Shown: positions 25,023 through 56,240 of the stretch, in pieces
Layout of the letters: the number at the start of each line of letters is the position of its first letter
How positions within the stretch are numbered: the first letter of the stretch is position 1
Assembly: GCA_951406725.2 (NCBI GenBank)
Contig: OX597838.1
Location: 32,984,001-33,048,000, forward strand
DNA: 64,000 nt
Direction: 5' to 3'
DNA from: Octopus vulgaris
Lineage: Eukaryota
Notes under the pieces: model-generated
Databases searched by the model: none
What the model was told of the DNA's origin: nothing
The model's input: only the letters and a program-made list of their open reading frames with translations
Program-made: the position numbers and the translations under genes

Positions 25023-25410
25023 GTATGTATATATATATATATACACACATATACATATATACGACAGGCTTCTTTCAGTTTCCGCCTACCAAATCCACTC
25101 TCAAGGCTTCGGTCGGCCCGAGGCTATAGTAGAAAACATTTGCCCAAGATATCATGCACTGGGACTGAACCCGGAACCATGTGGTTGGTAAGCAAGCTAC
25201 TTCCCACACAGCCACTCCTACGCCTATGTGTAAATACATATTATATACGATGGGCTTCTTTCAGTTTCTTTCTACCAAATCCACTCACGAGGCTTTGGTC
25301 GGCTCGACGCTAAAGCAGAAGACACTTGTACAAAGTGTCATGCAGTGGGACTGACTCCGTAACGATCTGGTTGGGAAGCAGACTTCTTACCACAGGGCCA
25401 CGCCTGCACC
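24553..25410 (-). mobile_element. Three adjacent SINE family B segments
   Basis: Repeated GGCTTCTTTCAGTTTC...CCAAATCCACTC..AAGG blocks. Confidence 0.8.
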
Positions 25411-26126: not shown

Positions 26127-26540
26127 GGCGGCGAGCTGGCAGAATCGTTAGCGCGCCGGGCGAAATGCTTAGTGGTATTTCGTCTGCCGTTACGTTCTGA
26201 GTTCAAATTCCGCCGAGGTCGACTTTGCCTTTCATCCTTTCGGAGTCGATTAAATAAGTGCTAGTTACGCACTGGGGTCGATGTTATCGACTTAATCCGT
26301 TTCTCTGTCCTTGTTTGTCCCCTCTGTGTTTAGCCCCTTGTGGGTAGTAAAGAAATAGGTATTTCGTCTGCCGTTACGTTCTGAGTTCAAATTCCGCCGA
26401 TGTCGACTTTACCTTTCATCCTTTTGGAGTCGATAAATAAAGTACCAGTTACGCACTGGGGTCGATGTAATCGACTTCATCCCTTTGTCTGTCCTTGTTT
26501 GTCCCCTCTGTGTTTAGCCCCTTGTGGGCAATAAAGAAAT
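26127..26540 (+). mobile_element. SINE family A tandem dimer
   Basis: Full unit followed by a unit lacking the first about 45 nt. Confidence 0.85.
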
Positions 26541-26594
26541 ATACATACATACATACATACATACATACATACATACATACATACATACATAAGC

Positions 26595-30605: not shown

Positions 30606-30711
30606 CTTCCACGCTGCAATTGTTTTCGTTTCAGCACACGATCTCAGATCAAGTCACTTGCTATGCAAGTACATCCCCCTTTTTTATTCTCTCTGTTTAT
30701 TTCCTGGTGTT

Positions 30712-36305: not shown

Positions 36306-36559
36306 AATAAGAGAAAATAAACAGAGAGAGTATAAAAAACAAACTTGTGGATTTAGCGATCAATCATATATATGAGACAACATATATGCAATGGTCATTA
36401 CATATTTTCCCTTTAATTAAAGTAAATACTTTAATTTAATAAAGGAAAAATATGGAATAACCATTATTTATAATTTGTCTTATATATTACACTGTGTAAA
36501 ATCCAGTTTGGCTGGAGACCAACCAAGGATTTACAATATAGAATTGTGCAGCACGGAGT

Positions 36560-36610
36560 TTTGTCAGTGAACAGGTCGCGGTCTCGAAGCGACGAAAATA
36601 TTTTGGCAAA
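36560..36610 (+). ncRNA. Type I hammerhead-like motif with swapped G3-C8 core
   Basis: TTTGTCA-GTGAACA-G-GTCGC(GGTCTCGAA)GCGAC-GAAA-ATAT-TT-TGGCAAA; 7-bp stem I, 5-bp stem II, palindromic stem III. Confidence 0.7.
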
Positions 36611-36700
36611 TTAAGTTTAATGTTGAAGTGAATCTAACGGTTTTTGTGTGTTTCTTAAATGGCTTATAAACACCTTCCACGCTGCAATTATATATATATA

Positions 36701-36877
36701 CTAGCAGTATCGCCCGGCGTTGCTCGGGTTTGTAAGGGAAATAACTATATAAGCATTTTAGAGAGTTACTTCCCTTATATATGCAAAAAATGCATTAAAA
36801 TAGGAAAAATTGATGGTAATTTTTTTAAAAATCGTAGACTTATCGTAGACGCGCGCTAATACCCAGAAGGCACACAA

Positions 36878-36880
<3 letters not shown>
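36701..36880 (-). mobile_element. Non-autonomous Helitron, 3' part
   Basis: Same hairpin + CTAG terminus as 7997-8303. Confidence 0.75.
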
Positions 36881-38380: not shown

Positions 38381-39300
<920 letters not shown>

Positions 39301-51892: not shown

Positions 51893-52830
51893 ATTTACTT
51901 TCTTTCTTACTTTCTTTCTTTCCTTCTTTCTTCCCTTCTTTCTTTCTTTCTTACTTTCTTTCTCACTTTCTCTCCCTCTTTCTCTCTCTCACCCTCTCTC
52001 TCTTCTTCTTTCTCCTCCTCATCTATCAATTCCATCCCACCATATTTCCAACACATCTGTTCCAACTTCGCCCACCCCGCCAAAAAACAAAATGTATCAA
52101 ACGATCTGATACATTGCTGCCACCACCACCACAACCACCACCACCACTACCATTATTACTACGAACAACATCTCCACAGCCATCCCCAATGCCCACCACC
52201 ACAACCACCACCACCACCACCATCACCATTGCTATCACTGTCGCCGTTAGTGTCGCCATCTGCAGGTGATACTCTTTCCAACACTTCACTTGTTTAGATT
52301 ATCTCGCCTCTCTTAGTTTGGCATATGCAATGGATTTAGGACCACATCCATCCCCATTCTGTTCCTCCTCCTCCTCCTCCTCCTTCTCCTCCTCCTCTTC
52401 TTCATCTTCTTCATCTCCTCCTCTTCTTGTTCCCCTCCTCATCTCCTCCTCCTCTTCTTCTTCCGCAACACTCTCTCCTCCTCTTCCTCCTCCTCTTCTT
52501 CTTCCGCAACACTCTCTCCTCCTCTTCCTCCTCCGCTTCTTTTCGTTCTTCACCCCTCCTACCCTCTTCATTCTCATCAGCATACTCCCTCTTTTCTCTT
52601 CCTTAATTTCCCCCTCTCCTCCTCCCCCACCCATTTCACCCACCTACTCTTCATCCACCTTCTCCTCTTCCGCTTCTTCTCGCTTCCCATCTCCTCCTCC
52701 TCCTCCTCCCACGTTCCTCCTCACCGTCCCATCCCCTCCTCCTGTTTCTTTCCTTTCACATCTTCATCCTTAATATCAATCTCACTCTCCCCTACCCACC
52801 ACCACCAACAACAACGCCAACACCAACACC

Positions 52831-54020
52831 CAGAGCCGTCTCAACCACCCAGAGCCCTCTTAACCACCCAGAGCCGTCTCAACCACCTAGAGTCGTCTCA
52901 ACCACCCGGAGCCGTCTCAACCACCCGGAGCCGTCTCAACCACCCAGAGCCATCACAACTACCCAGAGCCGTCTCAACCACCCGGAGCCGTCTCAACCAC
53001 TCGGAGCCGTCTCAACCACCCAGAGCCGTCTCAACCACCCAGAGCCGTCTCAACCACCCGGAGCCCTCTCAACCACCCAGAGCCCTCTCAACCACCCAGA
53101 GCCGTCTCAACCACCCGGAGCCGTCTCAACCACCCAGAGCCGTCTCAACCTCCCGGAGCCGTCTCAACCACCCAGAGCCGTCTCAACCACCCAGAGCCGT
53201 CTCAACCACCCAGAGCCGTCTCAACCACCCGGAGCCCTCTCAACCACCCGGAGCCGTCTCAACCTCCCGGAGCCGTCTCAACCACCCAAAGCCCTCTCAA
53301 CCACCCAGAGCCGTCACAACTACCCAGAGCCGTCTCACATTACCCAGAGCCGTCTCAACCACCCAGAGCCGTCTCAACCACCCGGAGCCGTCTCAACCAC
53401 CCAGAGCCCTCTCAACCATCCAGAGCCGTCTCAACCACCCGGAGCCGTCTCAACCACCCAGAGCCGTCTCAACCACCCAGAGCCGTCTCAACCACCCGGA
53501 GCCGTCTCAACCACCCAGAGCCGTCTCAACCACCCAGAGCCATCTCAACCACCCGGAACCGTCTCAACCACTCGGAGCCGTCTCAACCACCCAGAGCCCT
53601 CTCAACCACCCAGAGCCATCTCAACCACCCGGAGCCGTCTCAACCACCCAGAGCCGTCTCAACCACCCAGAGCCCTCTCAACCACCCAGAGCCGTCTCAA
53701 CCACCCGGAGCCGTCTCAAGCACCCAGAGCCGTCTCAACTACCCAGAGCCGTCTCAACCACCCAGAGCCGTCTCAATCACCCAGAGCCGTCTCAACTACC
53801 CAGAGCCGTCTCAACCACCCAGAGCCGTCTCAACCACCCGGAGCCGTCTCAACCACCCAGAGCCGTCTCAACCACCCAGAGCCGTCTCAACCACCCGGAG
53901 CCGTCTCAACCACTCAGAGCCGTCTCAACTACCCGGGGCCGTCTCAACCACTCGGAGCCCTCTCAACCACCCGGAGCCGTCTCAACCACCCGGAGCCGTC
54001 TCAACCACCCAGAGCCGTCT
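52831..54020 (+). repeat. 19-bp minisatellite CAGAGCCGTCTCAACCACC, roughly 60 copies
   Basis: Direct head-to-tail repeats with point variants and no spacers. Confidence 0.95.
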
Positions 54021-54597
54021 TAGCAGTCTTACAGTGGTCCCTACCACCGTGTAAATCGATGCCTTGGATCCTGTAGTATTTATTTATTGACAGCAAGCAC
54101 AAAATACGTACATCGGAATTCGGTCCCTGGACCATTGTGACGCCCGGGCAAACTGCTCTGTGTAACCGTGGCTTAAGACGACACAGCCATCACCAACAGT
54201 TGCCTAATCAGATCTCGAAACCGCATCCGACCGGTTTTAAAAGAGGACAAACAGGTTAACATTCGAGGATGATACGTTATTGAACAAAAGAAAAAAAAAT
54301 ACAGACTGGATGGTCACAACTGGAATGTCCTGTAATCTCATAGTTGCTCGATCTCTGGGTCCATTTAGATCAAGACACCACCCCCACCACCACCACCACT
54401 AACGCCACCAACAATAACTGCTCTCACCCTCTGCACACAACAACAACAGCCAATGTGTCGTCTCTCTCTGTTTCTCTTTCCCCCTCTCTCTCGTCTCTCG
54501 TCTCTCGTCTCTCGTCTATCTCTCTCTCTTGAGTCTCTCTTGTCTCTTTCTCGTCTCTCGTCTCACCTCTGTCTGTCTGTATGCCTGTCTGTATGCC

Positions 54598-54647
<50 letters not shown>

Positions 54648-54784
54648 GTCTGTCTCTCTTGTCTCTCTCTCTCTTGTCTCTCTCTCTCTCTTGTCTCTCT
54701 CTCTCTCTCTTGTCTCTCTCTTGTCTCTTTCTCGTCTCCCGTCTCTCCTATGTCTGTCTGTCTGTCTCTCTCTCTCTCGCCTCT

Positions 54785-55290
54785 CTCTCTTGTCTCTCTC
54801 TCGTCTCTTGTCTCTCTCTCGTCTCTTGTCTCTCTCTCGTCTCTTGTCTCTCTCTCGTCTCTTGTCTCTCTCTCGTCTCTTGTCTCTCTCTCGTCTCTTG
54901 TCTCTCTCTCGTCTCTTGTCTCTCTCTCGTCTCTTGTCTCTCTCTCGTCTCTTGTCTCTCTCTCGTCTCTTGTCTCTCTCTCGTCTCTTGTCTCTCTCTC
55001 TCGTCTCTTGTCTCTCTCTCTGTCTCTTGTCTCTCTCTCGTCTCTTGTCTCTCTCTCGTCTCTTGTCTCTCTCTCGTCTCTTGTCTCTCTCTCGTCTCTT
55101 GTCTCTCTCTCGTCTCTTGTCTCTCTCTCGTCTCTTGTCTCTCTCTCGTCTCTTGTCTCTCTCTCTCGTCTCTTGTCTCTCTCTCGTCTCTTGTCTCTCT
55201 CTCGTCTCTTGTCTCTCTCTTGTCTCTCTCTCGTCTCTTGTCTCTCTCTCGTCTCTTGTCTCTCTCTCGTCTCTTGTCTCTCTCTCGTCT
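54785..55290 (+). repeat. 18-bp minisatellite TCTCTTGTCTCTCTCTCG
   Basis: Direct reading; explains the S/L- and E/R-rich ORFs. Confidence 0.9.
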
Positions 55291-55374
55291 CTCGTCTCTC
55301 TCTCTCGTCTCTCTCTCTTGTTTCTCTCTTGTCTCTCTCTCGTCTCTCGTCTCTCCTCTGTCTGTCTGTCTGTC

Positions 55375-55408
<34 letters not shown>

Positions 55409-55545
55409 AAGACAACACGGCTCATAGTCTCTCGTGATGACCTCACACAGACAAAAAATGTTGAGAAAAGGTATCACAAAGAATAATAGGCCTTCCTTCT
55501 TTCTTTCTTCCTTCCTTCCTTCCTTCCTTTATTTCTTTCTTTCTG

Positions 55546-55580
<35 letters not shown>

Positions 55581-55764
55581 GAGCCAAGAAGTAGTTGGCT
55601 CAGTTCGAGGCAACGAAGGAAGACTTCTTCGTTGTTGTTGTTATTGTTGGCAAATGCCCCGGTGTGTTGGATGGTTTCTGTGAAAACAATGGACGGGAAG
55701 CAATATGCTTTCCTGCCGAGATTGGTATTACAGGATTTGTTTGTACGATTAGTTATCATCGCAG

Positions 55765-56240
55765 GCAGCGAGAGAGCAGAATCGTTGCCGCGTCGGAGAA
55801 AAACGGTTGGCGTCACTGCTTCCAGCTCTAAACGCTCTTGGTTCAAATTCCGCCGAGGTCGACTTTGCCTTTCATCCTTTCGGGGTCGATTGAATAAGTA
55901 CCAGTTACGCACTGGGGTCGATATATAATCGACTTAATCCTTTTGTCTTTCCTTGTTTGTCCTCTCTGTGTCTAGCCTCTTGTGGGTAGTAAACAAATAG
56001 GTATTTCGTCTGCCGCTACGTTCTGAGTTCAAATTCCGCCGAGGTCGACTTTGCCTTTCATCCATTCGGGGTCGATTAAATAAGTACCAGTTACGGTTGG
56101 CGGCGCTGCTTCCAGCTCTTTACGCTCTTAGTTCAAAATTAAGCCGTGGTTGACTTTGCCTTTCATTCATTCGGGGTCGATAAAATGAGTGCCAATTGAG
56201 CACTCGGGTCGATGTAATCGAGAAGCTCCCTCCGCCAGCT
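55765..56240 (+). mobile_element. SINE family A multimer
   Basis: Three tandem core blocks. Confidence 0.8.

Follow-up and report, generated by a model that had tools for sequence, protein, structure and literature searches.

A family-wide G3-C8 pair in the hammerhead motif of an octopus Penelope-like element

The window analysed here, 64,000 nucleotides of Octopus vulgaris contig OX597838.1, contains at 36560-36610 a hammerhead-like motif whose core reads GUGAACA. An earlier note on this DNA had proposed that two simultaneous changes, which keep the tertiary pair between positions 3 and 8 as G3-C8, point to selection for catalysis rather than decay. The locus raises the question of whether the exchange belongs to one copy or to a family, and what the fold is kept for.

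Anatomy of the motif and its parent element

Features of the window are as follows, with motif positions numbered by the established hammerhead convention.

36547..36689, plus strand: stub of the pseudo-LTR (pLTR) of a Penelope-like element (PLE), 90% identity over 144 nt to both pLTRs of L097
36560..36566, plus strand: stem I, 5' strand, from the sequence and the fold of 36545-36625
36567..36573, plus strand: core G3 U4 G5 A6 A7 C8 A9 (GUGAACA), with G3 at 36567 and C8 at 36572
36574, plus strand: unpaired G between positions 9 and 10.1, a G in 6/6 related elements
36575..36593, plus strand: stem II (36575-36579 with 36589-36593) and loop II, which varies among subfamilies
36594..36597, plus strand: G12 A13 A14 A15.1 (GAAA), from the sequence
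36597..36602, plus strand: self-complementary AAUAUU in place of a stable stem III, from the sequence; U16.1 is 36602
36603, plus strand: U17, with the cut predicted at 36603/36604
36604..36610, plus strand: stem I, 3' strand; G at 36606 is a subfamily variant that turns U-A into U.G
36659..36689, plus strand: first codons of the element ORF; ATG at 36659, and the frame MAYKHLPRC... opens a long ORF in L098
36690..36700, plus strand: (AT)n run adjoining the stub's 3' end, as is usual for insertions of this element
30606..30678, plus strand: another stub of this element, shorter and consisting of the tail without the hammerhead, 93% identity over 73 nt

The GUGAACA core, a stem I of 7 bp, a stem II of 5 bp and the GAAA stretch are all present as the earlier note had described them; stem I includes one U.G wobble, and stem II has G10.1-C11.1. 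The palindrome of the note is self-complementary as claimed but comprises the six letters AAUAUU instead of AUAU, and the unpaired G between A9 and stem II is a feature that the note lacked. Folding recovered stems I and II and added an eighth pair to stem I; the G at 36606 occurs in 16/88 copies. Watson-Crick pairing of positions 3 and 8 is possible (G-C), and the unpaired base between 9 and 10.1, G10.1-C11.1, GAAA and NUH are all features of PLE hammerheads. The literal CUGANGA box is replaced by GUGAACA, and the motif is therefore filed as a variant, not as a plain PLE minimal type I hammerhead.

Could the resemblance be accidental? An Rfam scan of 36400-36700 with E values up to 10 matched no hammerhead family, Rfam scans yielded simple-repeat noise alone, and the fold was no more stable than shuffled sequences (z 0.23 to 0.30). 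Even so, we give chance almost no weight: a descriptor unconstrained at positions 3 and 8 found a single site in the window, this motif, and none in 60 resampled windows; each element carries one motif, at the pLTR position known for PLE hammerheads; and canonical homologous motifs in two related elements (L214 and L219) in effect refute the idea. The motif is real and above chance.

The parent is represented by L097, a full-length copy in which identical motifs at 1242 and 5503, 4,261 bp apart, flank an RT/GIY-YIG frame; five further long copies terminate in the same motif. In L102, a 1,025-residue open frame carries DKSG and YVDD motifs. The GIY-YIG domain scored above the Pfam cut-off (25.4 vs 22.6 bits), and the element gave no Pfam RT match, so that the RT call is based on these motifs and on homologs annotated as RT-domain proteins. 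Among named homologs of the element protein, the closest is from Octopus vulgaris. The single ORF, RT followed by GIY-YIG, has the layout of a PLE with a C-terminal endonuclease. Copies show pLTRs, inverted partners truncated at the 5' end, a tail on one side and flanks of (TA)n, all in line with the PLE layout described in the available part of PMC8557442. The motif lies upstream of the ORF start (ATG at 36659 in the window), and the ORF thus places no constraint on it.

The window stub contains the 5' leader, the hammerhead and the first ORF codons, with boundaries set from copies: its 5' end is 3 nt short of the usual one, and its 3' end is the first of two common 3' ends. Having no promoter, ORF or partner, it is likely inert. 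Its leader start (36547-36558) is nearly complementary to 36676-36687, just before the first common 3' end; in longer copies the leader start is likewise nearly complementary to the tail end, and predicted folds pair the two. This complementarity may position the two RT start sites considered below.

Other features of these loci are recorded here. Another repeat begins directly after the (AT)n run (36700-36880), and similar sequence flanks several other loci; its short G+C hairpin beside CTAG, on the minus strand, resembles a Helitron 3' end. Two-copy tandem arrays of SINE-like units of 184-186 bp occupy 26174-26541, 38551-38915 and 25056-25405, and composition shifts strongly at 52001-56000 (GC up to 0.58, GC skew -0.58). 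Elsewhere, an element copy on the minus strand of L101 (4559-7418) is interrupted by an LTR-retrotransposon-like pol with protease, RT and integrase-like frames recognised by eye. A tandem pair 3,455 bp apart in L061 was considered as a full element and rejected as a local duplication of a stub.

The 3-8 pair in the family and its relatives

Exact matches to a 19-letter motif pattern with positions 3 and 8 free were counted across the genome, giving 7,054 matches against 0 for the reversed control. G3-C8 accounted for 6,459 of them (92%), 386 had G3 with another base at position 8, and 209 lacked G3. No C3-G8 copy was found among the 7,054, and the non-G3 matches with G8 numbered ten (six U3, four A3). 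A pattern anchored outside the motif gave 8,064 genomic matches; from its first 100 places 98 copies were sampled, and G3-C8 was present in 63/70 of those spanning the core. G3-C8 is therefore the family consensus, and the window copy is no outlier. The same core occurs in contigs from sequencing runs labelled as four organisms; on 36553-36622, among the rows listed, three organism labels differ solely in loop II and one CpG.

Variants common to at least 8 of the 98 copies were then assigned to columns. They affected 0/11 catalytic columns, 0/7 columns of the other core and stem III, 1/24 stem columns (a change that keeps a wobble and is carried by the window copy), 4/9 of loop II and 9/61 of the flank. 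Loop II and flank together account for 13/70. The Fisher p was 0.009, which overstates the contrast, since columns are linked and two of those in the flank are gap artefacts in homopolymers.

Departures from the consensus were not symmetrical. Among the first 100 of the 386 copies changed at C8, T, G and A occurred 44, 40 and 16 times; among the first 100 of the 209 changed at G3, A, T and C occurred 62, 31 and 7 times. C8 to G is about ten times as frequent as the strand-equivalent G3 to C, an excess for which a hotspot, templating by a nearby repeat or many source copies are candidate causes. Copies with G3.G8 or U3.G8 were considered as fossil intermediates, an idea left unsupported by their mixed subfamily backgrounds and absence of clustering in a tree with 118/186 branches unresolved.

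An RT search found a sister PLE family in the same genome (L106-L109, for example L107:1637 and 6225), 61% identical and with many intact frames of 1,310-1,312 residues. Its hammerhead lies at the same place and has C3-G8 together with A9C and an imperfect stem III palindrome; its pattern has 3,770 genomic matches. That this family thrives with A9C suggests that core damage may be tolerated. Further relatives are encoded on nine metagenome contigs. Eight loci (L097, L107 and L214-L219) were tested with a descriptor leaving positions 3, 8, 9 and 9a free. Six yielded one motif each, all Watson-Crick at 3-8 and of three pair types: G-C in L097, C-G in L107, L214 and L219, and U-A in L216 and L217. 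L216 combines U3-A8 with C9, and base 9a is G in all six. The covariation rests on these six elements, of which L217 also carries G5U. L215 and L218 gave no motif with this descriptor, and L220-L222 none in the first motif search of relatives, made apart from the eight-locus test. No relative was found in the viral contigs searched. A PLE-like RT/endonuclease contig in a bacterial metagenome bin (L283), where host contamination is probable, was inspected by eye over its final 484 bases, and no motif was seen.

In a midpoint-rooted tree, the G3-C8 family was sister to the C3-G8 family with support of 99/99, and the outgroups had C3-G8 or U3-A8, so that G-C is most simply derived from C-G. We infer that the change from C3-G8 to G3-C8 postdates the separation of the two families and followed a path that requires a mismatched intermediate. 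Homologous elements have C3-G8 or U3-A8 at the corresponding position, which makes the swap a compensatory and inherited one.

These data bear on the proposal that the core of one source element decayed, acquired a lucky second change and was amplified regardless, leaving the motif a dead relic. The mismatched intermediate must have existed, about 150 copies are estimated to carry G3.G8 (40 in the first 100 of the 386), and cleavage is dispensable for insertion in vitro in a lizard element (PMC11167929, as far as available). We nevertheless hold a relic to be very improbable. Across subfamilies with RT divergence of up to 28%, loop II changed but core and stems did not; copies with G3.G8 do not group together on a low-resolution tree (18 changes vs 17.9 in shuffled data); and fixation of G3-C8 in the family, together with Watson-Crick pairing at 3-8 in 6/6 elements, argues for a compensatory swap and not for decay. 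We hold it very likely that the fold is under constraint, and selection would have acted on source elements, not on the window stub.

Copy ends and the question of cleavage

If the motif cut its RNA before insertion, copies might be expected to end at the cut site. Of the 98 sampled copies, 54 have their 5' end at the leader start, within a zone of 13 nt that lies about 20 nt upstream of stem I, and 3 begin further upstream. Within 3 nt of the cut site there was 1/98, with about 2 expected from background, and 3' ends at the cut site numbered 0/30 and 1/61; neither set was enriched. The 3' ends instead form two clusters, about 150 and 208-210 nt from the start. With 54/98 ends at the leader start and 1/98 at the cut site, the inserted RNAs were mostly uncut.

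Reverse transcriptases can copy a cap as an extra G, as known from LINE-1 work. Among 56 distinct copies reaching the start, 17 running into upstream element sequence were set aside; of the other 39, 25 carry an additional G at a position that is C or T in the element (12% in the flank background), and some of these G's could derive from the inverted partner. Judging from these ends, the leader-start zone is likely a capped transcription start. Upstream of the leader, long copies (L031-L060) show branch-point-like and polypyrimidine-AG motifs after about 900 nt of microsatellite-rich sequence, which may mark the end of an intron, a promoter or the two together. The intron end is the less favoured reading: no copy with a shared upstream exon was seen, and the 5'-end pile-up takes in the AG itself plus the extra G, which fits a transcription start better.

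The following course of events would account for the copies. Transcripts would be capped and begin some 20 nt before stem I; reverse transcription would initiate within the first ORF codons, at two internal sites, and proceed to the cap, giving cDNAs that end up as stubs of about 150 and 210 nt, the window stub included, from uncut RNA. Any cutting would depend on pairing, via AAUAUU, between the 5' and 3' pLTR motifs of a single transcript, and the unit released would measure about 4.3 kb. AAUAUU is present, and pairing in a double hammerhead was computed at -25.8 kcal/mol vs -27.8 for two monomers and -31.5 for an alternative dimer. Self-cleavage is predicted after U17.

Which function keeps the fold is a separate matter. 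It might serve as a structural element, in protein binding, leader folding or translation control, without a meaningful rate of cutting, position 3-8 being conserved for structure. Inserted copies stem from uncut RNA, and both large families of this genome have non-canonical cores (G3-C8; A9C). In the available part of PMC11167929, catalytic mutations left in vitro insertion of the lizard element unaffected, and none of the RNA-seq reads ended at its cut site; roles other than cleavage are also allowed by Cervera and de la Peña (PMC4209133, in part). A purely structural role is harder to reconcile with the 3-8 pair, which in the accessible text of PMC3884650 is reported solely in the active fold and not in the ground-state minimal fold, and with the retention of U4, G5, A6, G12-A15.1, U16.1 and a non-G17 in 5/6 elements. 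We consider it unlikely, though less so than a relic.

The favoured reading, which we regard as probable, is that the PLE pLTR holds a minimal type I hammerhead fold in which G3-C8 has replaced C3-G8 family-wide, and that this compensatory swap has likely persisted owing to a need of source elements for the active-site fold; the motif is predicted to cut weakly and solely when paired with a second copy or aided by the element protein. Catalysis under some condition is in itself likely. As for the claim of the earlier note, its two pair-preserving changes proved compensatory and inherited, while selection for catalysis remains inferential because the copy ends bear no cleavage footprint and insertion of the lizard element in vitro is independent of cleavage. 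A bolder version is tentative, and we put it slightly below an even chance: that this is the first natural hammerhead with G3-C8 fixed genome-wide, and that it cuts; that one PLE clade passed through C-G, U-A and G-C at 3-8 across a mismatch valley; and that a different attenuating core change in each of the two sister octopus families, which jointly exceed 10,000 copies, keeps the capped RNA uncut until two motifs, or motif and element protein, meet.

The role of PLE hammerheads is open, as they are near universal in PLEs, poor cutters and seemingly dispensable for insertion in vitro. The G3-C8 family, its C3-G8/A9C sister and the U3-A8 relatives offer a ready panel for asking whether catalysis or the fold alone is under selection, and they add natural covariation to what crystallography and mutagenesis have shown of this tertiary pair. 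Searches based on CUGANGA, and Rfam, miss this family of >7,000 copies.

Comparison with known hammerheads and PLEs

A literature search, with figures and some supplements beyond its reach, returned no natural G3-C8 and no paper on an octopus PLE hammerhead; in the available parts of PMC3884650 and PMC8495972, G3-C8 appears as a lab variant only. It is thus likely, not certain, that G3-C8 is new as a natural hammerhead state. Natural covariation at 3-8 was already known: U3-A8 is described for the Schistosoma PLE Cercyon (PMC4209133) and by Perreault et al. 2011 (PMC3088659), one of these natural cases, in the accessible portions, being a PLE represented by about 1,300 hits, and the supplement alignment of PMC4209133 includes a U3.G8 motif. 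Those hammerheads share with the octopus family a natural compensatory change of the tertiary pair. They differ in path, U-A being reached by two transitions through a U.G wobble and G-C by two transversions through a mismatch.

The closest counterparts are the metazoan PLE minimal type I hammerheads of Cervera and de la Peña 2014 (PMC4209133), of which the available part reports inactivity as monomers and weak activity as dimers. Shared are the pLTR location, the unpaired base between 9 and 10.1 (given there as a trait of PLE minimal hammerheads), G10.1-C11.1, GAAA, a self-complementary stem III region, NUH and thousands of dispersed single copies. The octopus family differs by G3-C8, which is absent from the motifs seen in the Fig. 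S3 alignment, and by its unpaired G where the consensus is H (one listed motif, Nasonia, has G); the list as available is without a cephalopod.

By its element, the family resembles the Neptune and Nematis clades, for which the available part of PMC8557442 describes a CX3CX2C motif in the RT-EN linker. The octopus linker carries this motif (P0001), and TA flanks at its insertions parallel their (TA)n targets. With Poseidon of Anolis carolinensis (Frangieh et al. 2024, PMC11167929, as far as available) it shares a pLTR hammerhead, AT-rich targets, two internal RT start sites that define the tail and uncut RNA as insertion template. Cleavage of that hammerhead needs the element protein, and its mutants still insert; C3G or G8C alone abolishes cleavage, which the double mutant partly restores. 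The octopus element is set apart from Poseidon by a motif wholly upstream of the ORF start and by the linker CX3CX2C. In Poseidon, moreover, C3G/G8C is an engineered laboratory mutant, whereas in the octopus family G3-C8 is the natural state.
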